The position numbers and the translations under genes are program-made. Positions 460-60,734 of a stretch of DNA of 64,000 bases are shown in pieces. Every line of letters starts with the position of its first letter. Position 1 is the stretch's first letter. The DNA comes from Schmidtea polychroa (Eukaryota), in assembly GCA_044892525.1 (NCBI GenBank), contig CM097885.1:23190001-23254000 (forward strand). Direction: 5' to 3'. The notes beneath the pieces were generated by a model that had not been told where the DNA came from, ran no database searches, and saw nothing but the letters and a program-made list of their open reading frames with translations.

Positions 460-1316
460 AGTAGATGGATTGGGCACCGCTAGCACAGTACCCCCCCCCC
501 TCCCCCCGTCGGTAAGATTTTCAAAAATATTCTAAGTCTAAAAGTACATTTTTTTCAAGGTCAAAGTTAAACAAAGACATATGACTCATCAAGGTCATTG
601 AAACAAAGACCATGACTCATCCAATGACTCATCAAATTTCCCAAGGTCATTTAAACAAAGACTATGACTCATCAAGGTCATTTTCAAGGTCATATGACTC
701 ATAATATGACTCATCAAGGTCAAAAAATTTTCTCAAGGTCATTTAAACAAAGGCCATGCCTCATCAAGGTCATTTTCAAGGTCACATGTCTCATACCATG
801 ACTCATCAAGGTCATTTTCAAGGTCATATGACTCATCCGATGAGTCATAAAAATTTTCAAGGTCATTTAAACAAAGACCATGACTCATTCAAGGTCATTT
901 TCAAGGTCATATGACTCATTCAAGGTCATTTTCAAGGTCATATGACTCATTCAAGGTTATTTCCAAGGTCATTCTCAAGGTCATATGACTCATACTATGA
1001 CTCATCAAAAAATTTCAAGGTCATATGACCCATACGATGACTCATCAACATTTTTCAAGGTCATTTTCAAGGTCGCATGACTCATCCAAGGTCATTCTCA
1101 AGGTCATATGAGTCATCGCGATGAGTCATCAAGGTCATATTATTATTTTTAAAAATATTATTATTTTTATTATTATTTTTAAAAAATATTATTATTTTTA
1201 ATTTTTTCAAAGTTCCCGTCAACGAAAATTAATAATCGATAGCTCATTTTAAAGCTCAATCCAAGGCCTTTCGAATGAGCCATATATCTTGTTATTAAGA
1301 TTATTATTTCTAAAGA

Positions 1317-1377
<61 letters not shown>

Positions 1378-1555
1378 CTATATACACCGAGTCTATATAC
1401 TCCGTGTCTATCCGACAAAATATTTTGTCCCCCTATGGGTAATGCTCACAAGGGTACTGGTCACGCTCAACAAATCAACAAATCAACAAAACATACATTT
1501 ATTTAAACAATAAAATAATGTAAAATTAACAAAGGTAAACTAAATATTGATGTAC
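460..1555 (+). repeat. Left TIR of Polinton A with TGACTCA/CAAGGTCA arrays and an (ATT)n tract
   Basis: Reverse complement matches 17046-17843, with a different number of repeat units. Confidence 0.93.
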
Positions 1556-2001
1556 TACTATTCGCAGCAATATTGTTAGAAATTGGTAACGATGAATTGA
1601 TTTTCAGATATTCTATTGATCCTTTGATTGTTTGAATTTCTCTTAATAATAATTCAATCTTTTTTAACAAATAATCATGCTTCTTATCAATAATTTTCAT
1701 ATTCTTTTTATTTTCAGCAATAGAGTTATTGAAAACCTCAATATGATCAATCAATTTAATTTTTATATTTTGTATATATTCAAATGATAGTTCATAACTG
1801 TTTTCTAAATTCTCCAATCTTTGAGATATTCTTTTTCCTGGATGCTTTGACCATTTTGGTTTATCGAGAATATATAAAATATCCATCAACTTGGCAGTAT
1901 TCGGACAAACACATTGATTTATTAAAAGACTCCACTGTTATTGTTGTATTGTGTGAGCACACACTCGTTATAATAATTAGCAATATGAATATAGTTTTCA
2001 T
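1503..2001 (-). pseudogene. Frameshifted signal-peptide / coiled-coil / hydrophobic-tail protein
   Basis: ATG at 2001 gives MKTIFILLIIITSVCSHNTT...; a 1-nt frameshift near 1865 joins ORF 1503-1889, which ends NSSTSIFSLPLLILHYFIV. Confidence 0.6.
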
Positions 2002-2106
2002 GGTGTATCAAATCAAAACCTTTCTTTTACATTTATAGTCTATCAACCAATCAAAATCATACAGTATTAGTATAAATAAAACATCATATTTTAAATTATT
2101 GTAAAA

Positions 2107-2621
2107 ATGTCTAATTTTATGGAAAATCTTTTAAGAGAACTCGTCAACAAGAATATTATGGAAAGCCTCTGTTTCCTGGTCGATCGGACCGAAAAGATCA
2201 TAGAAGGTAATCACATTGATTATGATAATGTGATCAATTCCGATTGTCTCGAAACGAAGAAATTCTATTTTAATAGGATTTTTAACTACCTATAAGACGA
2301 GGAGATGAAGTGGACCCGAATACTAGTAGGGTTCGCTTATATGAAGATAATAATTGAAAAAAGTCTATGGGACTCCGAGCACTATTATCAGTGGTCTCAA
2401 GAAGTAATACTTTTATAATCTATATTTTATTAATATTTATTTTCTAGATAATCAAGTCAAAGTTTCAGCCATGGATTGAAGCCAATGGCGGATGGGGCGT
2501 GCTGAATCGACTCGCCAGAAATGCAAAGGAATTAGATCAACAGAAAATCAAATTTAAAAACTATATTAAACTTGCAACAGGTGTTGCTATTTTGTATGTT
2601 TTATGTCGGTTTTTTAAATAA
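2107..2621 (+). pseudogene. Bcl-2 family protein, two exons (intron 2404-2447), in-frame TAA at 2293
   Basis: BH1-like DEEMKWTRILVGFAY, BH2 PWIEANGGWGVL, C-terminal anchor LATGVAILYVLCRFFK. Confidence 0.85.
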
Positions 2622-2698
2622 AAATTAATATAGTTATTTTGTTTGATTTTTAAATAAAATTTTAAATAAATTTACAAACACTAATTAACTAAGATTTA

Positions 2699-3084
2699 TT
2701 AATTAACACATTCGCAGTCTTCATCTCCACATTTCATTATATTTTCAACGACATGATCAATACAATCATTCGTAATATTATCTTTAGATTCATCTTTAGG
2801 TTCCTCTTTAGGTTCCTCTATAGGTTCATCTATAGGTTCATAGATTTCCTCATCAATTTCTTGAGTATCGGTTTCTTGAGTTTCTTCCTCATCATCAAAT
2901 CCTTTATCTTGACTCTCAACTAACCAGCTGATATTTAAGGAATTTGTAATAGATAATATGTCCTCAATTTTCACACCAGATATTTCTGCTAACTTTTCCA
3001 ACAAAAAGTTGATTAAAAATTCTAAATAATAAATAATTCGGTAATTAATTAATCATGTTAACCTTTTTCTGCAGTCATTTTCAT
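2699..3084 (-). CDS. Acidic hypothetical protein, two exons (intron 3022-3062)
   Basis: GT-AG splice joins MKMTAEK to the ORF in frame; E/D-rich with a Cys-rich end. Confidence 0.6.
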
Positions 3085-3212
3085 CACTTTAAAACTAAAT
3101 TATAAGTTTGTTTATAGATTTTCTTTGTTAAATTTGCATGTCATTTGCATTTATGTTGCAATTAATAAAGAAAAAAAAACAAATCTGACTAATACATTTA
3201 TTAAATATAACA

Positions 3213-3623
3213 TTAAAATATTTGTGAAAGTCTAGCAGACATAATTTTCCAAATAGGAGAATATACATCATTATTATCAACTTTATATCCCTGGATTGCA
3301 ATTGTTATATACCTATTTTCATTTTCTTTGAAACTGATTTCATCAAAAGCATCATAAAATCTTGCATATCTATTTTTGAACCATGCATGTTGATTACACG
3401 ATAGATTCGAATCTATCCGTTTAAAAACATCATCAATAGTTTTGACATCAATCATTGAAAGCGTGCCGGATAAGAATTCAAATTTAGTTGGAATTAGCTT
3501 GACTGGTGCAACCAATTTCATATTGATTTCTTCTTTCAAAAAATACATTTTGTAGTTGTGGAACATTTGAACTCGTTGTACCATTTCTTTAGGTTTTTCG
3601 GTGCTTGAAATTTTCTTGGTCAT
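3213..3623 (-). CDS. Hypothetical protein, possibly OB-fold ssDNA-binding
   Basis: Clean 136-aa ORF with CCAAT and TATA upstream and AATAAA downstream; the fold is inferred only. Confidence 0.55.
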   Translation of the reverse strand: MTKKISSTEKPKEMVQRVQMFHNYKMYFLKEEINMKLVAPVKLIPTKFEFLSGTLSMIDVKTIDDVFKRIDSNLSCNQHAWFKNRYARFYDAFDEISFKENENRYITIAIQGYKVDNNDVYSPIWKIMSARLSQIF

Positions 3624-3851
3624 CGTGAATAATGAATAAATTTAAATGTTACAGGGTTTTTATACCTTTGACTCATGCCTATCAACCAATCAGATTATAG
3701 CATGTCTTTGTTTAAATTGCATTCAAAATGCATTGATGTTGCATTGTCACATGTTCTATTATTTTTATTAATGTTTTATTATTATTAATGTTTTATTATT
3801 TCTATTATTATTATTATTATTAATTTTTTATTATTAATGTTTTATTATTTC

Positions 3852-3884
<33 letters not shown>

Positions 3885-3901
3885 TTTATTATTACTATTT
3901 C

Positions 3902-3940
<39 letters not shown>

Positions 3941-3984
3941 TATTATTTCAAATATAAAAAAGATAAAACACAATAAAAATACAT

Positions 3985-4403
3985 TTATTGGTAACCTAAA
4001 TCTACAATCCGGGAGTAGTGAAACCTTCTCAGAGTTTTCACTAACTCCCATTCGACATATCGCCGATATCGATGGGCACAGCATGAGCATCCGATGATGC
4101 ACTGGTACTCCGGCTCCATTTGTTTGATGGTTCTGTTTATCTTTATATCCCACAAGAACTGGTGAAATACCTCCATTATTCTAATTTGAGTTGTGTAGAA
4201 AATGAGGTCCGGAATTATTTCTGCTTCTCGATCCTTGATAATTTCAATAATTTGAGGATAATAATATTTTATCCTATTGATCATAACTTCTAAATATTTT
4301 TCTAAAATAATAAATAGTAAATAATGTGAAAATAAAAAAATTAAAATTTACCATAATCGTCGATATCTTTCATGAGGTTTGCAGCGCTTGGTAATTTGTA
4401 CAT
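3985..4403 (-). CDS. Hypothetical protein, two exons (intron 4302-4351)
   Basis: MYKLPSAANLMKDIDDY splices in frame into ORF 3985-4284; Cys cluster CIIGCSCC. Confidence 0.6.
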
Positions 4404-4477
4404 GGTGTTGAAAAAATGAATCCTAAACAAAAAACCGTTTGTTTAAATCAATCAATAACCAATTAGAAATTAACCAA

Positions 4478-4915
4478 TTAGAAATCGACTAATGAAATTA
4501 TCTCATTTCGAACATTGTCAACAAATTCTCTATACTCCAAATTTCTCAACCCCAGCATGACAACCTTTCCACTAGCAAACACGTTGACACAAATAGGGTT
4601 ATATTTTAATAGTCTTAGTGCTGGAAACAATTCCGGTTCAAACATACAATCACATTTTTTCGACATGTTATATAGATTGATACTATGTCCCATATCCATA
4701 GTAACGGTAATTGATTGGATTGTAATATTATTTATTCGATATTGTAATTTATTAATATCCAAAGGTTTCTTACATCCCATGATTCTGCATTTACCAGTCT
4801 TGAAAAATATTATCGGATATTTCCCACTTCTATCGATAATTTGCTGGGGTTTCCCTGGTGGGAACCTCATATTCGATACATCAAAATTTCCTCGATAATT
4901 TATATTTGCTAACAT
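4478..4915 (-). CDS. TATA-binding-protein-like protein (two TBP repeats)
   Basis: FEPELFPALR...VNVFASGKVVMLG and IIFFKTGKCRIMGCK match the TBP repeat pattern YEPELFPGL...LIFxSGKxVxTG. Confidence 0.88.
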   Translation of the reverse strand: MLANINYRGNFDVSNMRFPPGKPQQIIDRSGKYPIIFFKTGKCRIMGCKKPLDINKLQYRINNITIQSITVTMDMGHSINLYNMSKKCDCMFEPELFPALRLLKYNPICVNVFASGKVVMLGLRNLEYREFVDNVRNEIISLVDF

Positions 4916-5014
4916 TATTAAATCATTTATGAAAATTAGTCTTTATATATAAATTGAGCACGAGTTCATTAAATCATCGAATATAAACAAATACACATTT
5001 ATAAAATCTTTGAA

Positions 5015-5641
5015 ATGGAATTAAGAAATGATGCTGTATACCAAATCGTTGGTCCGAGTGGTAGTGGAAAAACATTATTTGTTTGTAAATTACTAAAATC
5101 CAATTTATTCAAATCAAAATTCAACAGGATTTATTGGCATAGGGGTGCTGATGAAGAACATGGATTAACTCAATCAAGTTTCTGTAAATTAAAAAACATG
5201 AAAATAGTAAAGGGATTTGATAAAAACTGGTCCAGCCGATTAAAGAAGGGTGATGTCATTATTATTGATGATTTGTATCAAGAAGCTAATAAAGAAAAAG
5301 ATTTTAATAACTTATTTACAAAGATCAGCAGACATGTCGATGTAACAGTTATTTTCATAACACAAAATCTATTTCATCAAGGTGGGGCACATCGAACACG
5401 TAATTTAAATGTACAGTATTTAGTTATTTTCAAGAATCCTAGAGATGCAACAGTGATTGATTTTCTTGCACGTCAAGCATACCCTAACAATCGTAATTTT
5501 CTTATCAGTGCATTTCAAGATGCTACAAAAATACCTCATGGATATATATTTCTTGATTTCACACAACAATGTCCCGATGATTTACGAGTAAAAACAGATA
5601 TTTTCAACCCAAAAGGTGCCATGGTTTATAAACAAAGTTGA
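5015..5641 (+). CDS. A32/FtsK-like packaging ATPase
   Basis: Walker A GPSGSGKT, Walker B IIIDD, SRH and ITQ motifs. Confidence 0.93.
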   Translation: MELRNDAVYQIVGPSGSGKTLFVCKLLKSNLFKSKFNRIYWHRGADEEHGLTQSSFCKLKNMKIVKGFDKNWSSRLKKGDVIIIDDLYQEANKEKDFNNLFTKISRHVDVTVIFITQNLFHQGGAHRTRNLNVQYLVIFKNPRDATVIDFLARQAYPNNRNFLISAFQDATKIPHGYIFLDFTQQCPDDLRVKTDIFNPKGAMVYKQS

Positions 5642-5659
5642 AAACCTCTATGAATAATA

Positions 5660-5857
5660 ATGTTTCTAAAAGCAAGGGTGAAAAATATTAGGAAATTAAG
5701 AAAAAGTATTAGAAAGACTATTAAAGTTCCAAAGGTTCCACCAACAACTAGTTATACACCATCTAAAAAACTTGTAACTGAAAATTTCTCTGCAATGAAT
5801 CTTATTTCGAAAAATCCTAAACCTAAACGTAAAACCCGTAAAACCAGTAAAAAATAG
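5660..5857 (+). CDS. Small highly basic protein (candidate core protein)
   Basis: K/R-rich 65 aa within the structural cassette. Confidence 0.5.
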   Translation: MFLKARVKNIRKLRKSIRKTIKVPKVPPTTSYTPSKKLVTENFSAMNLISKNPKPKRKTRKTSKK

Positions 5858-5892
5858 TTAAAAATCATCGAAGTTTTCCATTTTTTAATGCA

Positions 5893-6159
5893 TTGTTAAA
5901 GGCCCCGAGTATGAAAAGAATGAATATATTGCAATCATTCCCAAATTTTGTTGTCGATGATTTACTCAATATTATACTTAAAGTAGTCAAAGGCAAAATT
6001 AAAATCAGTAAACATAGGAAACCATTATTATCTTTAGTAAATAATAAAAATCGTAAGCAAATGAGGAAAATTATATATAAACAACAAGGTGGATTTATTG
6101 GTGCCTTGATACCTCTGGCATTATCATTATTAGGTGGAGTTGTAGGAAATCAATCATAA
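5893..6159 (+). CDS. Basic protein with adenovirus pX-like hydrophobic tail
   Basis: Ends QQGGFIGALIPLALSLLGG; the start is uncertain. Confidence 0.6.
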   Translation: MLKAPSMKRMNILQSFPNFVVDDLLNIILKVVKGKIKISKHRKPLLSLVNNKNRKQMRKIIYKQQGGFIGALIPLALSLLGGVVGNQS

Positions 6160-6220
6160 ACAATGGGTGCTAATCCTTCATTGCCCGACATTAAATTTAA
6201 TTTTAAATCTTCTTGTTGTA

Positions 6221-6594
6221 ATGGAGAAGATTTGGACGAACCCAGAAGACGAAGCCGGTTTCGGTGGAGTGGCAAAATTAAACAAAAGAGTTCCGAATTC
6301 GAAAAAAGAAACCCAGATCAGCTTGCGTACAGTTTGAACAAACGATGCGGAAAAGATTTCCAACAAGAGCGTATAAAACATTTGGTATTGACGATTTATG
6401 GCAAATGGATTTGATGGAGATGATACCTTATTCGAAAATTAACAATGGGAATAAATATACTTTAACATGTATTAATGTATACAGCAGGTTTGCACGAGCA
6501 ATACCAGTCAAGGCAAAATCTGCAGAAGAAATGTCCAAGGCAATTAATATTTTATTTAAAGATGGACATCCTAATAACTTGCAAACAGATTTAG

Positions 6595-6680
<86 letters not shown>

Positions 6681-7264
6681 TTAGGTAAAGAATTCACTAC
6701 TCGGTACATTCTCAATACAAAGCTGCCCATGTTGAAAGATTTAATCGAACATTGAGAGATAGATTAAAGAAATTGTTCGTGCATCAAGGTAATAAAAAAT
6801 GGGTAAATGCTTTACTGAAAATAATAACAAGTTATAATCATTCATCACATCGAGGACTGAATGGATTGAGACCGGTTGATATTACATCAAAAACACCATT
6901 ATCTAAAAAATCTGTAAAAATTGCAAAACCTAAATATAAAGTCGGTGACCATGTTAGAATTAGTAAAATTAGTGCATCACCATTTATTAAAAATTTTGAT
7001 ACAAATTGGAGTGATGAAGTCTTTGTAATTTCAAAAATAAATACTAAACAGAATCCTGTAATGTATGTCATCAATGACAATGATAATAATATTGTACAAG
7101 GGAAATTTTATGAGCAGGAATTACAAGTCATTCCTCCCCCAAAAGTATTTAGAATTCAAAAAATATTGAAAACTAAAAAGGTCGGTAAGGATAAACAATA
7201 CTATATCAAATGGCACGGTTATCAAAACCCGTCATGGATATCGTCAAAAGACCTAGTAAAATGA
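6221..7264 (+). pseudogene. Retroviral-type integrase with chromodomain; intron 6595-6684; small deletions/frameshifts
   Basis: WQMDLM, QTDLG/KEF, HVERFNRTLR, C-terminal YYIKWHGY...SWI. Confidence 0.92.
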
Positions 7265-8265
7265 ATTTTTATATTATTTTACCTAGCAATAGCTGTCCAC
7301 TTATTCATCCAGATAATAAAGCCAGCAAATTCAGGGTCAATCTTCAAAATCCGATATATTTGGATAATAGCTGGGAAGTTGCTCTGTTGGATTTTACATT
7401 TGTATACCAAGCCTTTCCATTTTATAGTAAGGCTAAAATTGGATACAAAAAGAATGAGTGGCAGGATAGATTATTGTCTATGATCATTAATAATGCAGAT
7501 GATGAAGTTCGGTTGTCTAATTCAACTGATCCAGCTGTGAAATTGTATATTAACCATCCATATATAGTAGTTGAATGTAAACATTATCCTTTTACTGTAA
7601 CATTTGATAGTTTGGAAATGGCAAAACGATTGGAATTAAAAACCCAAAGTCATAAAGTTCTTTCCGATAAATTCACTGTGCTACGACCGGGATATTCCAA
7701 AACTGTACAGCGATTTGAACCAATTTTCTTTACAGTTTCATATCCGGGTATAACGTCTGGTACATTTGAGTTCAAAGATAATTTATACATTTCGAAATTG
7801 GATGAATTACAGACATATTTAAAACAAAGTGGTTTATTTAAATCATTGGAAATATCAGACAGATTCAAATTCAGTTTGAATCCCGAATTTACTGAAATTA
7901 CTTTTGATGCAGATCTAATAAAAACATTAGGATTATCAAAAGCAACATATGCTCAAGATGATCAAGGTACCCTAGCTCCGAAAATAATTAAACTTCACCA
8001 ACAAATGTTCATCTATAGTAATATTGTTGATCCTGTAATTGTTGGCGATTCTTTGGTCCCACTCCTGAAATCTGTTTGGATTGAAAAATATGAACATGAT
8101 GAAGTAGTCAATATAAATATCGATAATCCCATCTATTTACCTGTGTCAACCTCATGTATAAACAATATAGAAATAAATATACGTGATGATTCTGGTAAAT
8201 TAATCGCATTTCCAAAAGATTCAAAAACTCATTTAACATTACATTTTCGTAAAGTAGATGGCTAA
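7261..8265 (+). CDS. Minor capsid protein (penton)
   Basis: MNFYIILPSNS start; FIYSNIVDPVIVGDSLVPLL and IEINIRDDSG motifs. Confidence 0.85.
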   Translation: MNFYIILPSNSCPLIHPDNKASKFRVNLQNPIYLDNSWEVALLDFTFVYQAFPFYSKAKIGYKKNEWQDRLLSMIINNADDEVRLSNSTDPAVKLYINHPYIVVECKHYPFTVTFDSLEMAKRLELKTQSHKVLSDKFTVLRPGYSKTVQRFEPIFFTVSYPGITSGTFEFKDNLYISKLDELQTYLKQSGLFKSLEISDRFKFSLNPEFTEITFDADLIKTLGLSKATYAQDDQGTLAPKIIKLHQQMFIYSNIVDPVIVGDSLVPLLKSVWIEKYEHDEVVNINIDNPIYLPVSTSCINNIEINIRDDSGKLIAFPKDSKTHLTLHFRKVDG

Positions 8266-8623
8266 TTCGGATATTATAAGTATGTATAGTGGTAGCCAAT
8301 CTGGCGGTGAATTAACATATTTTATTGGTAAACAGTACGGATCAGGATAATTGAGAACAATTGGTAGATTTTCACTTCCTATTCTTAAACGTATTGGTAG
8401 TTTTGGTATGAAAACTGCTAAAGATGTTATTATGAATGAACAGAAAATATTACCATCTCTAAAATCAAATGCTTTAGCAGAATTAGGGAAAGTTTTACCC
8501 GGGGTTGCAGGTATGTTTCAAAAACCAGCTCCAGTTCCAGCTCATGCTCCAAAACGTAAAAGACATGGAATATCACGTATAAACAAACGAATGAAAGGCC
8601 ATGGAACTATATTTGCAAAATGA
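8258..8623 (+). pseudogene. Core-like protein with QxGG/QYGSG motifs, premature TAA at 8348
   Basis: MANSDIISMYSGSQSGGELTYFIGKQYGSG*LRTIGRF; the copy at ~39150 has Trp at the stop position. Confidence 0.7.
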
Positions 8624-9842
8624 TTTGTGGTAAATCTGAATTATGTATATTTGATAGACCGTCGCCCCAGGCTGTAATAGAATTTGGGGCGTTTGAGGAA
8701 GTTTTTCCAATGAATTCAATTACTGATAGTAGAAATGATATAGAGTTTTATATTAATGGTTCGCAAAATGAATATTTAGATTTGAACGATACTTTATTGA
8801 CTGTTCAGATCAAGGTTATAGATAAAGATAAAAAAGCTTTGGGTGATGCTGCTGATGCAATACCGAACAATTTCATGTTTCATACTCTTTTTAAAGATGC
8901 TGTGTTGGGATTTAATAATATCAAGATTGAAGGTGGTAATAATACATTCAGTCACAAGGCTTTGATAGAAACTATTTTAAATTACAATTCCGATACTAAA
9001 AATACATATCTTACTCCAATGGGATATGCTGCAACCGACGATGAAAGAAAAAAGTGGATTAAAGGCTCAAAAACATTCACCATGTGTTCATCGTTACAAC
9101 TCGATTTTATGGATCAACCGAAATATTTGCTTCCAGGAGTTAATGTCCACATTCAATTGAAAAGATCCGATTCTGCACTAACTCTTACTAGTGCTACAGG
9201 TGCACCAATATGTCAATTAGTTGATGCAAAATTATTGGTGAGAAAAGTACGAGTAGACCCCTCAGTATTAGCAGGTCATCAATTGGGTCTTAATTCAAAA
9301 CATGCAATTTATCCATTAAAAACAAAGGAAATTGTACAATTTGCTATTGCTAAAGGTGCTTCATCAGTCTATAAAGAACAAATATTTGGTGACAGAAGAA
9401 TGCCTAATTTTATTCTGATAACATTTCAAAGTGAAGCACAATATAATGGATCATATACTGCGTCCAGCTCAATTTTCAAAAACTTTAATGTTACATCATT
9501 GACTTTGTCGAAAAATACTGATTATAGAGAAACATATATTCAAGATTTCGAGAATTACAATTTCTGTGCGACATATATGCAGAGCATTGTTAGAAATCTG
9601 GGTTATTTAGATAAAAATTTGAATTGTGGAATAACTCTAGAAGATTTTAAAAGCAAATACCCATTTTTACATTTGTTTTAGCCCCTGATTTTGATTTAAA
9701 TCAAAGTCAATTACCTCAAAATGGAAATTTACGACTGGATATAAAGTTTGCAAAAGCTATTACTGAACCAGTACATGTTATAATATATGGAGTATTTGAA
9801 AATGAAGTTCAAATTACTGCAAATAGAACAGTGTTGGTATAA
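8620..9842 (+). pseudogene. Major capsid protein (double jelly-roll), frameshift near 9667
   Basis: KSELCIF, YLDLNDT, DFMDQPKYLLPGV; the shifted tail GNLRLDIKFAK...ANRTVLV ends at 9842. Confidence 0.9.
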
Positions 9843-10241
9843 ATGTATATTGAAACACAAAAAGTTGTCATGGAGTAAGTTGTTCTTTTAAACTCTGGAT
9901 TTATTTAAGTAGTTCTGTTCAGGTCAATAAAATCGGAAAACAGATATTGGGAAATGAATTTGTTGGAGTTTTTCCTCTAAATAAAATTCCATATTTGAGC
10001 AATAATCAAGCAATAATCATCAATACGCAATCGTCTCATCTTGGTGGAGAACATTGGATAGCTATATATGTGAAACCTGGTAAAATATTAGTGTTCGATC
10101 CTATGGGTTTTTATTACCCGGCTTTGTTGATATCAAAACTACAAACAATGGGGTAATAAAACTATGTTTCAAAATCCCTTGACCCAAACATGCGGTCAAC
10201 ATTGTTTAGCTTGGTTATTGTACAAAAAATTTGATGTTTAA
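9843..10241 (+). pseudogene. Adenain-like cysteine protease, disrupted
   Basis: GEHWIA (His), VFDPMG (Asp), and QNPLTQTCGQHC (Gln/Cys) in another frame. Confidence 0.85.
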
Positions 10242-10340
10242 AGAAAAAATGTTTAATAAATTTGATGTTTAATAAATGTATCCTTTCCTTTGTTGTTGTG
10301 TTATTATTAATATTATTATTAATATCATTATTAATATTAA

Positions 10341-10377
<37 letters not shown>

Positions 10378-10403
10378 ATTAATATTATTATTATTATTAT
10401 TAA

Positions 10404-10446
<43 letters not shown>

Positions 10447-10789
10447 GTGAAAAATATTATTATTTTTTAATTAATTTTATTATTATTCTAATAAATATTA
10501 TTATTTGTAACATAAAGACTGCCTTTGCCTGAGGCATGCACAGTGCAAGTTAACAAAGGCATGACTAACAAAGGCAGTCACATGTAATTCTGAGTGATTT
10601 ACATTACATACATGCATGCGTGTGATTGGTTGAGTGATTAAAATATTCAGTGTATATGTGTGTGTCTATATTCTCATTGGCTGGGACAGGAAAATATTCA
10701 TTCTCTTTATAAACATCGACAAATCTAAAATTTGTCACAATTATTTTAAAATTTTGAAATTTCAAAATCAATTTGATTAATATTCTAAA

Positions 10790-12046
10790 ATGGAAAAGAA
10801 CGATAATAATCGAGCGTTGAGAGGTCTTTTGACTAATGGTAAATTATTATTATTTTTATTCTATTTTATTTAGATCCTTTCAACTGGTTCGCAGTTACCG
10901 AAGACGAATCAATGTTGAACGTGGATCGGATTTTCGGTAAATTTATCATTTTAATTTTTATTAAAATTAATTTTATATATATTTTAGAACCTATTATTAT
11001 TATTAGCGATGATGAAGATTTAATATTTATTGAAGAAATTAATGCCGAAGATGAATCGATTTTAAATATGGAAAATATCGGTAAATTTATCATTTTAATT
11101 TTTATAAATATTAATTTTATATATTTTAGAACCTATTATTATTAGCGATGATGAAGATTTAATATTTATTGAAGAAATTAATGCCCCAGTTAATGATGTT
11201 GGGCAAAACAAGGTTTTCAAAGAAAAAAGTAAATTTATTTTACTTTAGTATTTTATTTTTAAAAATTTTATTTTTTAGCGTTTAATTTTGATATTGATGC
11301 CGAGGAAGTGGATGAAATAAATGATTCAGATAATACCCTCACTTCTATTGAGGAGGTGGACGAAATGAATGCCCTCACTTCTATTGAGGAGGACTCTGAT
11401 TCCGATATGGAATCGAAATGTAAGACTTATTTATTTTTTATATATTTTTATATATTTCTTTAAAATTTTATAAGCACTTTTTAAATATTTTCATATTAAT
11501 TTCATTATTTTCTTAAAAACTTTTATAAATTACTTATGATGAATTTATGAAGAAAATGATTTATGAAGATAATGATTTATGAAAAAAATGATTTATGAAG
11601 AAAATGACGAAAATTATGAATTTATGTTGAAAATGAATTATGAAGAAAATGGTGAAAATTATGAATTTATGTTTGATGAAAATGATTTATGAGGAAAATT
11701 ATGTTGAAAATAATTATATGACGAATATATGATGAAAACGATTTATGAAGAAAATTATGTTGAAAATAATTATATGACAAATATATGAATTTATGATGAA
11801 AATGATTTATGAAGAAAATGACGAAAATATGACGAAAAATATGAATTTATGATTATATGACGAAAATTATGTTGAAAATAAATATGACGAAAATTATGAA
11901 TTTATGATGAAAATTATGAATTTATGAAGTAAATACTACGTTTCTGAAAATAATGAAATTAATATAAAAATATTTAAAAAAGTGATTACGAAACTATAGT
12001 TATAAAATAATTCTTGTAGTTTGCAATGTGCATCTACATTAGTTAA

Positions 12047-12094
<48 letters not shown>

Positions 12095-12169
12095 CTGACC
12101 CTTCTACTATAGTCTACAGTAAGCATGTAGCTATATAGTAGTCTGCAGTGAGCATGCAGCTACTTCTCT

Positions 12170-12243
<74 letters not shown>

Positions 12244-15200
12244 CTTACTCGTCTAATATTTAACATATTCATATAATAATAATCTGACCCATATACTAAA
12301 ATCTCTCTAATATTCTCTCGAATATATTAACCTATTTTCTATAAGGATTTATCATCATTTGTTATATAGTTCATTTGAATTAAATAACAAATGATGATAA
12401 ATCCTTATCGATGTAACAATTAATAACAATTAGAAAAAGAGAATAAAACTTTAATTTTATTATTTAACAGGTAGACTATACCCAAATTATTGTCAATCCT
12501 CAATTGGACATAACGATAAATGTCATCGCACCATGAAAAAGTATTACAGAAAGACGTTTAATTCAGTCAACTTTTTTATATGCCCCAAATGCGTGACTAG
12601 CGAAAAAATACAATATAGGGAATTTTTTAATAAACATCATAGTCACTTAGGGCAATTTTCGATTTCAAAAAATGTTTTATTTAAAAAAATAAATAAAAAT
12701 AAAAAAAAATTACAAAAAAATTTAGAAAAAAATATTATTAAAAAAAATATTAAAAAAGAAAAAACAGATACTATTAAAACAGATACTATTAAAAAAGATA
12801 CTATTATTATTAAAAAAGATTTAAAAAATATTAAAAAAAATATTATAAAAGAAAAAACAGATACTATTAAAACAGATACTATTAAAAAAGATACTATTAT
12901 TATTAAAAAAGATCCTATTATTATTAAAAAAGATTCTATTAAAAGACCTGCTGGTTTAATTAAAAATTATATTCCTAATAAATTATCGCGACCTGAAGTG
13001 ATAGTCATCAGCAAAGATGAATGTGTAGCTTCAACATCTTTCACACAACACGCACCCATTACACAACACGCACCCATTACACAACAAGAAGTGATAGTCA
13101 TCAATGATGAATGTGTAGCTTCAACGTCTTTCAACATATGTCAAATAGGCGGCTCTTTGTTTGAACCTATGGTTGAATCCGATTTGAACGGATCGCGAAA
13201 AACTTTAAAATTGGATATTAGAAATCAAAACTTGGTAAAAATAACCCTAACATCAAAAATTGAAGAAAGATTAATAGAGGAAATAGAAAAGATGGGCAAT
13301 GTAAAAATTCAATTTACAATTTTAATTAAATTTGAAAAAGATGGGGAGATCCGGGATAATTATTTTTCAAACAATGCGCAAGTTTTTTCAGCAAATTTTA
13401 TAAACGAGGGGGTGAGCAAATTAAATGAAAAGATTGAGCAATTCACCTATTTAGGAAGCGGGTGGCGCGTAATGAATATTTTAGAGATAGATTTTATTTT
13501 AACGAAATACGCACCCGTTAGTAGATTATCCGGACATAGCTATATAAAAACCCCATCAGCATTAAAATTAAAACATGCAATAATTAATGTAAAAAACAAC
13601 GACCATAAGTGTTTCTTATATAGCATTCTTGCACTTTTAAAAAGAGAAGAAATAGGTCGTAATCACCAAAGAGCCGCCAAATATATAGAATTTTTACCTC
13701 TATTAAATTATGATGAAAACACAGATTGCCCGATGAGGTTATGCAACATTCCCAAATTTGAAAGGAAAAATCGCGATTTAAACATGAGCATAAACGTTCT
13801 TTCGTATAATCCAGCCAGTTCTGATTGTGATATTTCTCAGGATTATGTAGCTCACCACCCTCATCTTAATATCATACATCGTTCCAAGGTTATAGATGGT
13901 AGGCCGATTTATTTATTACTTTTGAGTAATAAAGATAAATATCATTATACGGCAGTGACAGACTTGGACAAATTAATGAATTGTCATTTAAATGAAAATG
14001 TAAATGTTCAAATAAGGTGTAACTGGTGCCCACATTGTTTAAATGGCTTTAGATATAAGAATGCTTTCGATCAGCATGTTGCTCTATGCTGTAAAAATCA
14101 GACTGGCACAACCTTGTATACACTTCCTAAAAATAAGGATTTATTATTCACAGATTACGCAAAAACCGTTACACCTCCCTTCGTAATTTATGCCGATTTT
14201 GAATCGGTTTTACCAGAACATGAAACATATCATCAAATACATTTACCCATATCAGCAGGTCTTTTATTAATTAATAATTATACAAACACTAAATTTTATT
14301 ATTATTTTTTTGGACCTAATTGTATTTTGGATTTTTTGAGGAAAGTGGAGGAAATTGCTGTCACAATTGTCCTGCCATATTATGAACTCGAAGGTCATAA
14401 AGGTATGTCTACTTTGTCTTTTGCTCAGGAGCGTGCCTTTCGATCTACCACTATTTGTTATTTGTGTAAAAAAGCTATTATTAATCCTGTGAGAGATCAT
14501 TGCCATTTTACAGGTAGATATGTCGGAGCGGCATGTAGGAAATGTAATGTCTCTCGCAGGATTAATAAATTGTTACCTGTTGTCTTTCATAATTTACGAG
14601 GCTATGACCTCCACCATATTTTAAAACATGGTCTCAGTGATTTTCCCCTTTGGGAACTTAAAATTATACCTACCTCTACAGAAAAATTTATATCTTTAAT
14701 TGCATATATTAACAAATTGCCTGTTCGTTTTATTGACAGCATGCAATTTGTTAATTGCTCTTTAGCCAAAGCTGTGAAAACCTTAACTACTTTTCCGTTA
14801 ACTTCGTCTGTCTTTCAAGGGTCGATGATTCACTCTAAAGGTATCTTTCCATATAATTTCGCTACTTCTTTGGATGTTCTTGAATCGACTTTAGAATTAC
14901 CTCCTATTTGGTCTGATGTTACGGAAGATCAGTACGCTGAGGCTCAACTAATGTGGAGTCAGCATAACTGTAATAATTTGTTATATTATATGTTAATCTA
15001 CCTAAAATTGGACGTATACCTCCTCGCAGACTATTTTCAGCAATTCCGCGGTAAGGCAATTGCTTACAATGGTCTGGATCCTCTTAATTTCTACGGGATT
15101 CCCGGTATGTCATGGGCCTCAGCGCTTATGACATTAACGGAACCCATAGAACTTTTGCAGGACATGGAAATGTATAATTTCTATGAGGGAGGTATCCGGG

Positions 15201-15874
15201 GTGGGTTAACATTTGTTAACAAACATTACACGGCTACTTCAGATGATACAGAATTATTGTACATTGATATAAATAATCTGTATGGTTGGGCTCTTAGCCA
15301 AAATCTTCCGTATGGTGATTTTTCTTGGGTGAATAATAACTTAAATGATGTTTTACTTGAATGTATGAACACGGATATTGATAACCTTCCATATGGGTAT
15401 ACTATGGAGGTCGATATCGATATTCCGGAATGTATGCATGACTTTTTGAATGATTTTCCGATTGCGCCGGAAAAGTTGTGCCTGCCTAATTCAAAAGTTG
15501 AGAAGCTGATGCTCACGCATTGGCCAAAGAGGAACTATGTTCTTCATTGGAGGCTTCTCAAATTGTATATAGAATTAGGTGCGGTTGTTGTAAATATTCA
15601 TAGATGTATAAAGTTTAAACAAGGACCTATCTTTAAATCCTACATAGACACCAACACCACTTTACGATCTCAGTCTACTAGCGAGATATATAGGGACTTG
15701 TTTAAATTGTATAATAACAGTCTGTACGGTAAATCCGTTGAAAATCTGAAAAAACGAATGAATTTGAGGTTGTGTAATTCATCCGAAAAGATGATAGTAT
15801 ACTCCTCAAAGCCGACTTTCAGAAAGTCTATAAGAATCGATAACGATCTGATTGTATTTATATATACATATTGA
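10790..15874 (+). pseudogene. Protein-primed DNA polymerase B with five predicted 5' exons; C-terminally truncated
   Basis: Exons 10790-10838, 10874-10936, 10988-11080, 11130-11228, 11279-11419, 12471-15874; YADFES, FHNLRGYD, YIDINNLYG and KLYNNSLYGK present; DTDS motif absent. Confidence 0.9.
11530..11930 (+). repeat. Degenerate tandem repeat (GAAAATGATTTATGAA-like) in the large pPolB intron
   Basis: Visible reiteration of the unit. Confidence 0.8.
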
Positions 15875-16039
15875 ATAAAATTTGTAATCAGATTTTTTTT
15901 TTTAAATTTTTTAAGTATTTGTTGTTTTATTATAATTTTTATATTTAATGGTGATTTTTATATAGTCTGCAGTGAGCATGCAGCTATATCAGTATTTTTT
16001 TTATATAGTCTGCAGTGAGCATGCAGCTATATCAATCAC

Positions 16040-16088
<49 letters not shown>

Positions 16089-16103
16089 CTTTAAACAGTT
16101 TGC

Positions 16104-16134
<31 letters not shown>

Positions 16135-16147
16135 TAATAATAATAAT

Positions 16148-16214
<67 letters not shown>

Positions 16215-16363
16215 CTTTAAACAGCTTGCAAGGTTACTAGTCATGCTTATTATACATTTGATGGTTACAATTTCTACATTTTGAAAACTATATTTTGATT
16301 GGCTATCACAATTTTATAAATGTAAGAACAAAAGTAATTTAGTTATTAAGAAATTTATTACTA

Positions 16364-16998
16364 ATGATTTCTATAAATAAAACTGATGAATGTGTAACAC
16401 ATTTGGTAACTTTATTATTTTGTCAATATTTTTTTATATATACCATTTATAGCAAGGAAGTCCTACTAGAAATAAGGAAAAATTATGTCCAACCTATTCT
16501 GAAATTTCATTGAAATTTTTTAACACAGTTGAAGATTTTATAAATAATCATGATACTTACAGTGATAAGCAACTCATAAATATTTTAAAGATTTTCAAAC
16601 ATTCCTCTATTGAATATTTGTTTGATTTATTTAATTATGAGAAATCCATTTTAAAGTTATCTTGTTATTTAATGTACTTAGAAAAAATATCAGTAAACAA
16701 TGATTCACTGAATGAATACTTTTGGAGTTGTATGCATTTAAGGTTGAAACCTAGATATAGTAGATTGATTTATGATTGGATAGCAAAAACCGATTTGATT
16801 GAAAATAAGCTAACGAAAAAACTGAACGATGTTAAGAAAAGGTATTTGACTTGTTCAATTTGTAAAGAAAATCGAGTTTCGGTTTTGTATTTACCATGTG
16901 GTCATGTAATTGTTTGTTCTAAGTGTCACGAGAAGAATGTTCGCAAGTGTCAAGCCTGTTCAACACTGATTAATGAATATCATACTATATATATTTAG
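16364..16998 (+). CDS. IAP-type C3HC4 RING protein, two exons (intron 16406-16452)
   Basis: CSICKENRVSVLYLPCGHVIVCSKC...CQAC...IYI at the extreme C-terminus; the upstream ATG exon splices in frame. Confidence 0.85.
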
Positions 16999-17045
16999 TT
17001 TACCTTTGTTAATTTTACATTATTTTATTGTTTAAATAAATGTAT

Positions 17046-17199
17046 GTACATCAATATTTATTTACCTTTGTTAATTTTACATTATTTTATTGTTTAAATA
17101 AATGTATGTTTTGTTGATTTGTTGAGCGTGACCAGTACCCTTGTGAGCATTACCCATAGGGGGACAAAATATTTTGTCGGATAGACTCGGTGTATATAG

Positions 17200-17251
<52 letters not shown>

Positions 17252-17843
17252 TCTTTAGAAATAATAATCTTAATAACAAGATATATGGCTCATTCGAAAG
17301 GCCTTGGATTGAGCTTTAAAATGAGCTATCGATTATTAATGTTTGTTGACGGGAACTTTGAAAATAATTAAAAATAATATTTTTTAAAAATAATAATATG
17401 ACCTTGATGACTCATCGCGATGACTCATATGACCTTGAGAATGACCTTGGATGAGTCATAGGATGACTCAGATGACCTTGAAAATGACCTTGAAAATTTT
17501 TGATGAGTCATAGCATGAGTCATATGACCTTGAAAATTTTTTGATGAGTCATAGTATGAGTCATATGACCTTGAATGAGTCATATGACCTTGAGAACGAC
17601 CTTGAATGAGTCATGGTCTTTGTTTAAATGACCTTGAAAATTTTTATGACTCATCGGATGAGTCATATGACCTTGATGAGTCATAGTATGAGTCATATGA
17701 CCTTGAAAATGACCTTGTTGAGTCATATGTCTTTGTTTAAATTTACTTTTAGACTTAGAATATTTTTGAAAATCTTACCGACGGGGGGAGGGGGGGTACT
17801 GTGCTAGCGGTGCCCTGTGCCAGCGGTGCCCAATCCATCTACT
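17046..17843 (-). repeat. Right TIR of Polinton A
   Basis: Inverted copy of 460-1555. Confidence 0.93.
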
Positions 17844-18206
17844 TTCCTCGTATAATAAAATAACGTTTGCAGTATTTCAGTTTTACAATATCACTACAAG
17901 TAAAATTGAAAGAAAGTACTTTCAAATCAGTGACAAGATGGTTTAGGTCTATTATCACCGAAACTCGATTATTAAGTTTATTTATGATTAGCGTACACAT
18001 GAGTTAACTAGAAAGAGAAGAAATAAAGGACATTATTGAAAATTATATTAAGATTTTGCTGGCAAGATAGACATTATTAATATTATATACTTATTAAACT
18101 ATATTTACAGAAAGTATTACTAAAACCTTTTTTAACCAATATGTAATAATTTCAATTATCAAAGGAAGATAACAACATGTATTCGGTATCCATCAATCAA
18201 TTAGAC

Positions 18207-20780
18207 CAGGGATGGCAATTACATGGCACGCGTGCCAAACTTGGCACGCAGACAAAAAACTTCTGGCACTCTAAGAAATTTAAAAAAAGAAGTAGAAAAA
18301 ATTCTTATTATAAAATAATTACTGCTTTTTAAAAAAAAATTTGGACCCAAAATTTTAATCAACGGCTTTGAATTGAATTCTATATTTTTTTCTCTAGTTG
18401 GCTTTGCGTTATTAAATAACGCAATTAATTATTAAATTTAGTTTATTTTGGCACTTTGATAAAAACCTATTTGCCAAAATAACGGTTATTTTGTACATAC
18501 GTATATGGTTGTGTTATAATTCTTGTATATTCTTACATCAGTTTTTAGTTTTGTTTTAACTTGTGCAGTTCAATAAAATTTGTGTTTAATTTTAAATAAA
18601 ATTTATTTTTTGCTGAATTAAAATGGTACCAAAAAAACCAAAACTACAAGATATTCGTAGCTTTGTACTCTCTTGGACTGCTGATTACGGTTTTGTTAAA
18701 CATGGAGATAAAAGTCGGTGCGGTCTGTACTCTGAAATTATTGTATGTCGAACGTCTTCTATTAAGCGACATTTTGAAACCAACCATAAAGAAATTGCCA
18801 AAAAAAATATTGAAGAAAGAAAAGAACTAATTTCTCAACGATTAAAGATAGCTGAAAATCAATCGAATTCATTATCAAAATTTGTAAAAACCAACAGCAA
18901 TGTTACAGAAGCTAGTTTTGAAATTTCTTATTTGATTGCTAAGCAATCAAAACCATTTTCTGATGGAGAGTTTGTAAAAACGGTTATGTTAAAAGCGGCC
19001 GAAAGTTTGTTTCAAGATTTTAATCATAAAGAAAAGATTATTCAAAGAATTCGAGAAGTCCAGCTAAGCCGAAATTCAGTTAAAGATAGAATTTTAAAAA
19101 TAAGTGCGAATATTTCTGATCAACTTTACAACGATGTTAATAGCTGTGACTACATTTCAATTTGCCTCGATGAATCAACAGATATTAAGTCATCTGCCCG
19201 ATTAGCAATCATTGCACGTTATCCGAAAGATAATGAAATGCACGAAGAACTTTTAAAATTAGCAAATATCCCAGAAAGAACAAGAGGTAGTGATATTTGT
19301 GAAGTTGTATTCAATGAATTAAACAAACTTAAAATAAATATTAAAAAAATCATTTCTGTAACGACAGATGGATCTCCTAATAGGACTGGACCAGAGATAG
19401 GTTTTGTTAATTTATTTCAAAACCTAGTTGGTCATCCAATAATAGGCTTTCATTGCATTATTCATCAGCAAGTTCTTTGTGCAAAATTCGGAACTAGCGA
19501 TTTCAAAGAAATATCAGAACAAGTTAATAAAATCATAAATTTTGTAGTTGCACGCGACATGCATAAAAGACAATTTAAAAAACTTTTAAATGATATGGAT
19601 TGCGAATACGATACTCTCTTAATGTGCAATAGTGTACGTTGGCTAAGTCGAGCGACATCCTTAGAACGATTTGTGAATTGCTTGGAAGAAATTCGACTTT
19701 TTTTACACGAATTCGACAGGGATCGTTTTAAAGAATTATATGATACAGAATGGTTAACAAAATTAATGTTTTTTACCGACGTAACATTACATTTAAACGT
19801 TCTTAATAAAAAATTGCAAGGACGAGGAAAAACAATTGAAGTTATGTTTGGATTGATAAAGGGGTTTGAAATTAAATTAGATATTTTTGCTAGAGATATC
19901 GCATCTGGAAAACATAATAATTTTCCGAAACTTAAAAGTTTTTTAAATGAATCTACAATTTTCAAAAAAACTAATTGGAATTTTAATTACGAATTTTCTA
20001 AAGTTCTTGAAACTATAAAAGAACAATTTTCAAATCGATTTAAAGATTTTAAAAGAATTGATAGGCTGTTGAAAATTGTAAATTATCCGGACTTATTCGA
20101 TATACAGGATTTCGATAACAACCTTATTAATTGGATAAAATTAGAAAATTTAGAAATGCAGACAGTAGATTTGCAATCTAATCCTATTTGGACACAAATA
20201 TTTGTGAATATGCGAAAAAATATAGAAGAATTGGAATATCATCGATTGTCACTGGATGGAGAGTCGGAATGCCGCATTGAAAACTTGATATTGGAAGTGT
20301 GGAATAGTATGCCAGAAGCATTTGCTTCTGTTAAAAAATTAGCAATCGCAATGTTAACCATTTTCGCATCCACTTATTACTGTGAGAGTCTTTTTTCTGT
20401 ACTTAATCATGTACTATCAAAGACAAGAAACAGATTAACAGAAGAAGACTCAGCAGCTTGTATTACCTTACAATCGACAACATACCATCCTGATATTAAA
20501 AACCTTGCAAATAATATGAAGCAAAAAACTTCTAACAAAATTTAAGAATTTTTTATTAAATTTATTATTAAACTTTATAATTTTTTTTACTATTTCTTTA
20601 TATTGAATAAATATTATCACATGAACTCAAATATTGAAATTTATTTCTGTTTTCTTGTGAATAAAAAAATGAATAAAAAATGTACATATAACAAATAAAA
20701 GTTACGAGGGCACGCGAAAAAAATTGAATTTAAATTTAGTTTATTTTGGCACTTTGATAAAAACCTATTTGCCATCCCTG
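18207..20780 (+). mobile_element. Full-length hAT transposon (Buster/SPIN-like)
   Basis: TIR CAGGGATGGCAA; 8-bp TSD AATTAGAC at 18199-18206 and 20781-20788. Confidence 0.96.
18623..20545 (+). CDS. hAT transposase, uninterrupted 640 aa
   Basis: LDESTD, TTDG, CIIH, RW and CESLFS catalytic motifs; the BED finger lacks one Cys. Confidence 0.93.
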   Translation: MVPKKPKLQDIRSFVLSWTADYGFVKHGDKSRCGLYSEIIVCRTSSIKRHFETNHKEIAKKNIEERKELISQRLKIAENQSNSLSKFVKTNSNVTEASFEISYLIAKQSKPFSDGEFVKTVMLKAAESLFQDFNHKEKIIQRIREVQLSRNSVKDRILKISANISDQLYNDVNSCDYISICLDESTDIKSSARLAIIARYPKDNEMHEELLKLANIPERTRGSDICEVVFNELNKLKINIKKIISVTTDGSPNRTGPEIGFVNLFQNLVGHPIIGFHCIIHQQVLCAKFGTSDFKEISEQVNKIINFVVARDMHKRQFKKLLNDMDCEYDTLLMCNSVRWLSRATSLERFVNCLEEIRLFLHEFDRDRFKELYDTEWLTKLMFFTDVTLHLNVLNKKLQGRGKTIEVMFGLIKGFEIKLDIFARDIASGKHNNFPKLKSFLNESTIFKKTNWNFNYEFSKVLETIKEQFSNRFKDFKRIDRLLKIVNYPDLFDIQDFDNNLINWIKLENLEMQTVDLQSNPIWTQIFVNMRKNIEELEYHRLSLDGESECRIENLILEVWNSMPEAFASVKKLAIAMLTIFASTYYCESLFSVLNHVLSKTRNRLTEEDSAACITLQSTTYHPDIKNLANNMKQKTSNKI

Positions 20781-22451: not shown

Positions 22452-23578
22452 CTAATTCTTTATTTTTGAGTCCTTGTTCTCTTTAACAATTGCAAATATA
22501 GATGTGCAATAAATCAAACAATCATTTGCTGATATTCTCTTATTTAAATTATAATCCAGCATTTTGTACAATAGTGGTAATAACTTATCATTCTCATCTA
22601 TACCTAATTTTAAATGCAATTTTTTCTCCGGAATTTCAATATTGTCTATTTTAATTTCGCAATTCATAATTTTCTGTTCTTCGTCATTTGGAACGCCCAA
22701 AATTTCAAAAATCTTTATTAACTGATCAGTTTCATTTTCTCCTTTGAAGATTACATCAAATAGAATCATTTCCATGAAAACAATAGCCATTGACCAGATA
22801 TCTATCGAAAGATTATACATTTGATTTTTACATAACAACTCTGGAGCTCGGTAATATCTAAAATTTATTCATTTTAAAATTAAAAAAAAAACAATGAAAA
22901 AAAAAATTTTTAAAAATTTATATAAAATAATTAATACCTTGATCCAACATTGACTGCATTCGATGAACCGGATTCAATTAATTTTGAACATCCAAAGTCA
23001 GCAATTTTAATTAAATCTTGATCAATATCTACTAAAATATTTAGACTTTTAATGTCTCTATGTCCAAAACGTCGAGAGTGCATAAAATCTAAGGCAGATA
23101 GCAAACTAAACATGAAATATTTCCTAGTTTCATTCGATAGAATAATTTTCTCATATCGCAATCTTTGAATTAAGTTATACAAAGATTCTGGCATCAATTC
23201 CATTACTAAACATTGTTTTATACCGTTTTTTGTTGCGTAATTAAAATGATATTTTAAACTAAGAATATTTCTATGACGATCACTAAGTAATGAATGGATT
23301 TCTCTTTCTCGACCGTTTCTATCACTTCTTTTTATGGCCAATATTTGAATCTTTTCTTCATCCAATGAATATTTTGTAGGCAATATTTTTACGTAAGCAG
23401 CAAACACATTTGCGAATGTTCCGGAACCAATATCTTTAATACATTTGACTTGCAATAGAACCTCGGAATTAGAATGTATCACATAAGATTTATATCTGTT
23501 TGAAAATTGAGAAAATGTATTTGTTGTGATTTGACTATGCGTTCTACTGAAATTTGATCGAAAACTGTATACGCTCAT
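22452..23578 (-). CDS. Divergent GSK3-like CMGC Ser/Thr kinase, two exons (intron 22858-22937), 348 aa
   Basis: GSGTFANV, AIK, HRDIKSLN, DFG, spliced SRYYRAPEL, IDIWS. Confidence 0.88.
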
Positions 23579-44765: not shown

Positions 44766-44769
44766 TGAT

Positions 44770-55691: not shown

Positions 55692-55708
55692 TATTTTAAC
55701 ATTTTAAA

Positions 55709-57118: not shown

Positions 57119-57129
57119 GTCGACAAGCC

Positions 57130-57921: not shown

Positions 57922-57936
57922 TTTGTTTATTATAAA

Positions 57937-58506: not shown

Positions 58507-58528
58507 TACCATTTTTGATACCATTAAA

Positions 58529-59410: not shown

Positions 59411-59432
59411 ATACGAAGTTTTAAAATACAAA

Positions 59433-60710: not shown

Positions 60711-60734
60711 AGATTCATTTTAAATTATTAATAA

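Follow-up and report, generated by a model that had tools for sequence, protein, structure and literature searches.

The question raised by this locus is whether a short region near one end of a mobile element, hidden from lists of open reading frames (ORFs), encodes a spliced Bcl-2 homologue, and what such a gene would do for its carrier. The whole stretch of DNA that was analysed (64,000 nt) is called the window below, and the candidate gene lies at 2107–2621 on its forward strand. On balance, the locus is best explained as an accessory Bcl-2-like gene of a Polinton, likely with two exons and broken by a stop in this copy, the intact copies of which likely encode a membrane-anchored inhibitor of cell death.

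The surrounding element

The gene is almost certainly Polinton-borne, as the initial annotation had it. It lies inside a 17.4-kb Polinton/Maverick element (460–17843) with AGTAG...CTACT termini, AG...CT-ended terminal inverted repeats, and a 6-bp target duplication, TTCCTC, at 454–459 and 17844–17849. The left repeat (460–1560) contains arrays of TGACTCA and CAAGGTCA, and the Bcl-2-like gene starts 0.55 kb inside it; the right repeat occupies 17040–17843. Among 384 non-repetitive bases that could be aligned, the two arms show 11 differences, in addition to gaps.

Other genes of the element were assigned by Pfam matches, motifs, or position. A TBP-like gene is located on the reverse strand (4478–4915; PF00352, E 3e-15). 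The forward strand carries a packaging ATPase (5015–5641; Pox_A32, E 2e-7), an rve integrase with a chromodomain (6345–7264; E 9e-6) in which an intron is predicted at 6595–6684 (TAT microsatellite) and the frame breaks near 6700, a putative major capsid gene (8620–9842) with a frame change near 9670, an adenain-like C5 protease whose pieces lie in different frames (9844–10230; Peptidase_C5, E 2e-5), and a putative protein-primed PolB (12533–15874). We take 8620–9842 to be the putative major capsid gene from its position, and 12533–15874 to be the putative polymerase from its motifs and the gene order; Pfam gave no capsid or polymerase match for these two ORFs. The putative PolB ends about 50 residues past NSLYGK, and the YxDTD motif was not found downstream of NSLYGK. 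At the far end, a predicted two-exon RING gene (16364–16998, forward strand; intron 16406–16452) encodes a C-terminal C3HC4_3 RING (PF13920, E 1e-9), presumably of the IAP-like type, and had no Pfam match to a BIR domain. Since the integrase, putative capsid, and protease genes have frame breaks and the putative polymerase lacks its end, this copy of the element is regarded as decayed.

Besides the intron of the Bcl-2-like gene, eight short, AT-rich GT-AG introns were predicted in five genes of the element, the integrase included (3022–3062, 4302–4351, 6595–6684, 10839–11278, and 16406–16452). The spliced frames are open in four of these five genes.

Host-type promoter-like words, CAACCAATCA (2044) and TATAAATA (2071), precede the Bcl-2-like gene at 2044–2078 on the forward strand, at distances of 60 and 36 nt from the ATG, and may serve as its promoter. 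Akin to these, ATTGG and TATAAAT words stand before the RING gene. The box TATAAAC is absent in front of the Bcl-2-like gene and is found at 3116, 4982, 5627, and 8578, 32–42 nt before four genes including those for the ATPase and the putative capsid. Its overall count in the element body is not enriched (9 seen, 9.4 expected), so that a division into early and late genes draws on the position of the box only. The element body has six copies of CCAATCA, where 1.5 would be expected. TGACTCA occurs 18 times in the left and 15 times in the right terminal repeat, and CAAGGTCA 23 and 12 times, compared with one and no occurrence, respectively, in the 15.5-kb body. We take these two words to resemble AP-1 and NR5A/ERR sites, and the terminal-repeat arrays could possibly be a stress- or hormone-responsive enhancer.

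The window contains further mobile DNA. The remnant of a second copy, from a related Polinton, was found at 37722–40555 on the reverse strand (77–85% identical over pieces of the capsid region), interrupted by a TTAA-ended MITE of 300 nt that is also present at 49840–50139. The 300-nt repeats at 39747 and 49840 were considered as LTRs and rejected, as they have inverted ends of their own starting with TTAA. A miniature element of 352 nt (44770–45121) with Polinton-like termini, AGTAGATGG...CCATCTACT, adjoins a fragment (44240–44770) that we take to resemble a Tc1/mariner transposase. A third Polinton/adintovirus of another type, intron-poor, occupies 54399–64000 and encodes a double jelly-roll capsid protein (E 1e-26), an integrase fused to a PLA2-like domain, and an A32 ATPase. 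Also noted were a gene for a protein kinase, split over two frames, and two ORFs resembling hAT transposases (22452–23578, reverse; 18623–20545, forward; 31264–32870, reverse).

Gene structure, predicted splice junction, and premature stop

From the ATG at 2107, 62 sense codons are followed by an in-frame TAA (2293–2295, codon 63), after which the frame remains open through the BH1-like motif WTRILVGF (2311–2334) to GAA at 2401–2403. This first exon (2107–2403, 99 codons) comprises predicted helices 1–6 and the BH1-like motif, as delimited from the sequence, the Pfam and PDB matches, the alignment of relatives, and an AlphaFold model. A GT stands at 2404, and the AT-rich stretch behind it closes with TTTTCTAG at 2447. 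The second exon (2448–2621, 57 codons plus the stop at 2619–2621) runs through the end of helix 6, the BH2 motif WIEANGGW (2472–2495), a linker, and a hydrophobic C-terminal segment (2571–2618). The last has a Kyte-Doolittle hydropathy of 1.94 over 15 residues, flanking basic residues, and a basic tip, RFFK, and is predicted to be a membrane tail anchor. The spliced product would have 156 codons. Reading through one TAA and removing 44 nt does yield WTRILVGF, WIEANGGW, and the basic-tipped tail, as first described. No ATG-initiated ORF of 100 aa or more overlaps the gene, the longest stop-to-stop piece is 66 aa, and the whole gene is missing from the ORF lists, in line with its having been called invisible in the ORF track. 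In a look-up of 24 sequencing runs, 20 contained part of the stretch, and four, all from one study, contained half of it or more; no RNA run was among those listed, which speaks neither for nor against expression.

The predicted intron (2404–2447, forward strand) is a phase-0 GT-AG intron of 44 nt with 11% GC, as judged from splice scoring and base composition. Between the stop and BH2 there are 58 GT/GC..AG pairs, 12 of which are in frame and free of stops; eight of the 12 would remove conserved BH1 and helix-5/6 sequence, and the other four have the donor at 2404. Splice sites were scored with a small matrix built on nine other, hand-picked introns. The acceptor at 2447 ranked first among 31 AG sites (11.5; runner-up 3.1). 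The donor at 2404 was weak, third of 15 GT sites with a score of −0.8, while the nine training introns scored 5.9–13.8. The GC content falls from 0.35 in exon 1 to 0.11 in the intron and returns to 0.35 in exon 2, and the length of 44 nt agrees with seven other predicted introns of the element (35–51 nt; one further intron has 90 nt). With the acceptor at 2447 only, the spacing from the helix-6 Trp96 to the BH2 Trp is 12, which equals Phe122–Trp134 of BFL-1. When the 12 candidate junctions were scored against a second Bcl-2-like domain in the window (see below), the junction as read reached 54 and the next ones 53 and 52, so they were barely separated.

Six relatives found in databases bear on the junction as well. 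Invariant residues occur up to E99 and no further, and the sequences end 3–9 codons beyond, a pattern expected of gene calls that run into an intron. The most distant relative (about 61% identity) has Gly instead of Val after E99, which a phase-0 GT at the same place does not fit; its donor is therefore not identical. For the proposed joining of 2403 to 2448, the clearly best acceptor, the drop in GC, and the spacing held, but the weak donor and the Gly of the distant relative did not agree with it. Judged from these sequence features together, the predicted junction is quite likely as read.

Five of the relatives are close (one 90%-identity cluster, short ENA contigs), and the sixth is 61–63% identical. 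All six are open across codon 63, and the stop, private to this copy among the seven sequences, is thus assigned to it. Splicing around the stop was also considered and rejected: among 28 in-frame options, all acceptors scored −4.5 or lower. With all relatives open across the stop and no credible splice that skips it, the proposed inactivation is upheld, and this copy is, from its sequence, in good likelihood dead. It could still make a shortened product by re-initiation at the in-frame ATG at 2305, four codons past the stop, as the frame is open from there through the predicted junction and the 90-codon product would hold helices 5–6, BH2, and the tail anchor. A stop well before a splice junction is likely to trigger nonsense-mediated decay, and here the distance is 108 nt; with the rest of the element decayed too, re-initiation is extremely improbable.

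The relatives presumably reside in Polintons likewise. A search of 1.84 billion protein representatives gave no cellular protein at E 0.001, and the sole match was one 63% relative. No related DNA loci were found in viral_contigs or metagenome_contigs, and no longer protein relatives were found. Ten proteins of the window were looked up by exact match in the cluster collection, and none of them was present.

Similarity to the Bcl-2 family

The two exons were searched separately, exon 1 with an X at the stop. For both, Pfam Bcl-2 (PF00452; gathering cut-off 31.4 bits) was the sole family matched, below the cut-off in each case: exon 1 at E 0.012 and 16.6 bits (profile positions 11–66), and exon 2, at a reporting threshold of 10, at E 0.25 and 12.4 bits (positions 86–100). 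As each exon matches only this family, and the adjacent profile segments follow in colinear order, the likeness is considered more than chance. In all seven sequences, Pfam Bcl-2 was the only or the best family for exon 1 (E 0.02 to 8e-4), with the distant relative, of which only exon 1 is available, giving the lowest E-value (8e-4, 20.4 bits, again below the cut-off).

In the PDB, eight of nine matches of exon 1 were Bcl-2-family chains, led by A1/BFL-1, and so were all 40 matches of exon 2, which are mostly Bcl-xL variants and hence not independent. A profile of the seven exon-1 sequences matched A1 at E 0.03, and eight of its 12 matches fell within the Bcl-2 family. The top three ESM Atlas clusters scored 0.91, 0.91, and 0.90, with PF00452 on 46, 12, and 29% of their members, respectively. 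The ten best Atlas matches all belonged to the same family or clan, with the proviso that shuffled proteins score 0.9 in 4–10 of 100 trials.

The structural comparison used the AlphaFold model of one naturally occurring relative of exon 1, a partial and shallow model (pLDDT 65.5) with six helices and BH1 opening the long helix 5. With this model, Foldseek gave no match with an E-value of 0.001 or lower in either PDB or BFVD, and no VIA match reached a Z of 8. Sixth in the VIA ranking was ORFV125, an apoptosis inhibitor of orf virus (Z 5.8, rmsd 3.7, 82 aligned), level with bundles that are unrelated. The Pfam and Foldseek check suggested at the outset gave a sub-cut-off Bcl-2 match for each exon and no significant match for the partial exon-1 model.

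The motifs follow the family in order and spacing, with BH1 before BH2. WIEANGGW has the BH2 pattern W-x-x-x-x-GGW and aligns with WIQENGGW of Bcl-xL. BH1 reads KWTR, not NWGR, in all seven sequences, with Thr in place of Gly and with the Trp and Arg retained. The likeness could in principle be a coincidence in an unrelated helical membrane protein, given that all scores are under the curated cut-off and the best PDB E-values are 0.03–0.2. Against this, two exons searched independently gave only Bcl-2, on adjacent segments and in the right order, the ESM Atlas was concordant, and a tail anchor follows BH2; we regard coincidence as very improbable. Homology is accepted although each score is sub-threshold because the searches agree, the order is right, and the tail anchor is present. 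The four weak but concordant searches, the exon order, and the anchor make the gene very probably a Bcl-2 homologue, as the initial annotation had proposed.

A second Bcl-2-like domain was observed elsewhere in the window, in an ORF of 712 aa with an acidic N-terminus (41091–43229, reverse strand, continuing in broken frames to about 40570). Its first 270 aa match Pfam Bcl-2 at E 0.0034, include WIKENGGW, and have BFL-1 as the best PDB match (E 0.04). A hydrophobic segment follows, and behind it lies a fusion glycoprotein of the Monjiviricetes (chuvirus-like) type (Pfam, E 2e-45); the tail continues in frame into the start of the putative minor capsid gene of the second Polinton. The ORF may be a gene of that Polinton itself, or a piece of a retroelement that a deletion has brought up against it. 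Its Bcl-2-like domain folded at a pLDDT of 44 from the single sequence, gave nothing at 0.9 in the ESM Atlas, and showed no likeness to exon 1 in hhalign.

Predicted function, origin, and known systems

The gene is probably a Bcl-2 family member that lacks two canonical pro-survival marks, the BH1 Gly and the intron after GGW. In intact copies, its CCAAT and TATA promoter would be used early by host RNA polymerase II, unlike the genes with TATAAAC, and the host spliceosome would excise the 44-nt intron to give the 156 codons. Through its tail, the protein would be held in the outer membrane of mitochondria or in the ER membrane. There, its compact bundle of helices, similar to A1/BFL-1 and with a degenerate BH3, might restrain host BAK/BAX-like or BH3 proteins, over a range of partners narrowed by the BH1 Thr. 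Cells would in this way outlive the DNA-damage stress that comes with replication and integration of the element. In one planarian, Polintons are described as de-silenced during differentiation and upon PIWI loss (PMC8532177), which is of relevance here if the host is a planarian.

By its sequence, a pro-survival role of intact copies is probable, and its specific form, groove binding with narrowed partners, is somewhat less so though still favoured. By analogy, a block of apoptosis like that by E1B-19K or the herpesvirus and poxvirus vBcl-2 proteins is plausible, and is weakened by the replacement of the BH1 Gly by Thr in seven of seven sequences and by the distant relative, which matches BAK about as well as A1. 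In the PDB, seven of its nine matches were BAK chains (E 0.2–1.3), with A1 at similar scores, so that the sequence does not settle between pro-survival and pro-death action.

A pro-death, BAK-like cargo that helps cells to lyse and particles to escape, or that works as a selfish toxin, would accord with these BAK matches. The killer BH3 motif includes a Gly-Asp pair; the helix-2 segment here is without it, and the Asp position is D, E, or N among the relatives. The promoter is moreover of the host type and lacks the late-type box. Toxic Maverick cargo is known in nematodes (10.1101/2022.07.12.499685), but viral Bcl-2 proteins are described as mostly pro-survival (PMC11209288, PMC7022251), and a killer is a rather improbable reading of this gene.

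The BH1 substitution bears on the groove itself. Where the Gly of NWGR is lost, a working BH3 groove has been deemed unlikely, and Ser at this place in mouse Boo has been regarded as changing selectivity (PMC8998228). Classical BH3-groove inhibition is uncertain here because Thr replaces Gly in all seven sequences, and this invariance would also suit a Bcl-2 fold in a non-canonical job, with the groove occluded by the Thr and the protein, instead of sequestering BH3 proteins, modulating autophagy, ER calcium, or innate signalling in the manner of some poxviral Bcl-2-like proteins. Non-groove modes are described for viral Bcl-2 proteins (PMC7022251, PMC11209288), and the second ESM Atlas cluster mixes PF00452 (12%) with Poxv_Bcl-2-like PF06227 (11%). 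However, the BH1 Trp and Arg, a full BH2, and the tail anchor have been kept, a combination to be expected of a protein that acts at the mitochondrial membrane, and the top PDB matches were A1/BFL-1 and Bcl-xL. A non-canonical job is accordingly unlikely, though less so than a killer function, and a membrane-anchored inhibitor of cell death is preferred.

For the origin, the position of the intron is informative. From sponge to mouse, pro-survival genes have kept an exon boundary after GGW (PMC8998228); in the Bcl-2-like gene GGW is unbroken, and the predicted intron lies 16 codons upstream. With the GGW intron missing and eight other introns predicted in the element, the simplest reading is an old capture of a host Bcl-2 gene, in which the ancestral GGW intron would have been lost and a short intron gained within the element. 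The gene could instead be a neutral passenger, recently acquired from the host with its own intron and unused by the element, as in nematode Mavericks, where host cargo with introns typically lies in the stretch from the left repeat to the integrase (10.1101/2022.07.12.499685). Against this, the intron is placed elsewhere than after GGW; no cellular protein reached E 0.001 among the 1.84 billion representatives, and the frame, which has stayed open in all six relatives, even the one at 61% identity, points to selection. A recent passenger is on these grounds improbable, and old capture is kept as the preferred origin.

More tentatively, this Polinton lineage might re-intronise its own genes: Bcl-2 would have been captured via a spliced mRNA and would then have received the 44-nt intron as a new one, and six genes, the integrase gene among them, would have at least nine short introns in all. 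Together with the host-type promoters, the AP-1-like and nuclear-receptor-like repeats, and the spliced RING partner, the gene would then form a stress-switched, two-arm module for the control of cell death. If this is true, the second, chuvirus-glycoprotein-fused Bcl-2-like domain of the window would mean repeated independent Bcl-2 capture by mobile elements of the host.

A divergent Bcl-2-like gene that is invisible to annotation joins the accessory set of animal Polintons, and the finding supports the view that Polintons manage host cell death as viruses do. Spliced cargo of Polintons escapes an annotation that goes by ORFs only, and the gene counts published so far are therefore probably low. 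With its non-ancestral intron and its BH1 change from Gly to Thr, the gene offers a usable case for intron gain in virus-like elements and for plasticity of the BH3 groove.

Among cellular proteins, BCL2A1/BFL-1 and Bcl-xL are the nearest. Exon 1 best matches A1 residues 37–105, and exon 2 best matches the BH2 of Bcl-xL. The gene shares with them the order of BH1, BH2, and the tail anchor and the spacing from helix 6 to BH2; the distance from the BH1 Trp to the BH2 Trp is 47 in BFL-1 and 39 here. The gene differs from both in its KWTR BH1, in having no intron after GGW, and in its sub-cut-off Pfam scores.

E1B-19K and the herpesvirus and poxvirus vBcl-2 proteins are likewise small, divergent, tail-anchored, Bcl-2-like, and part of a dsDNA virus or virus-like element; their anti-apoptotic action is proven, whereas here it is predicted from the sequence (PMC11209288, PMC7022251). 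No exon had a Pfam match to Adeno_E1B_19K or Poxv_Bcl-2-like, and an E1B-containing ESM Atlas cluster, at a score of 0.86, is a lead only. Planarian Burro LTR retrotransposons also include a BCL2-like motif, as a domain of a giant retrotransposon polyprotein according to a review (PMC6431247), in contrast to the stand-alone, two-exon gene in a DNA element found here. Nematode Mavericks share intron-bearing cargo in the 2–5 kb from the left repeat to the integrase; that cargo is described as proteases and kinases, and the core genes as intronless (10.1101/2022.07.12.499685), whereas the cargo here is Bcl-2-like and the integrase has a predicted intron.

The closest precedent is in adintoviruses, the capsid-coding animal Polintons, for which Bcl2 and IAP homologues have been reported (Starrett et al. 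2021, PMC8502044). A Bcl2 homologue in an animal Polinton is common to both, and Supplementary Fig. S2 of that study has three Bcl2 labels; that study also names IAP accessory genes, and the present element has, at its far end, a gene with a C3HC4_3 RING at the C-terminus. The comparison is one of descriptions. The main text of that study makes no mention of splicing (no match to "splic"), while the gene described here has a predicted intron and the BH1 Thr. No report of a spliced Polinton Bcl-2 was found in the open-access literature searched, which did not include Supplementary Fig. S1 of PMC8502044. Bcl2 in Polintons is already known, and the fresher leads are the intron-rich Polinton and the fusion of a Bcl-2-like domain with a chuvirus-like glycoprotein at 41091–43229.
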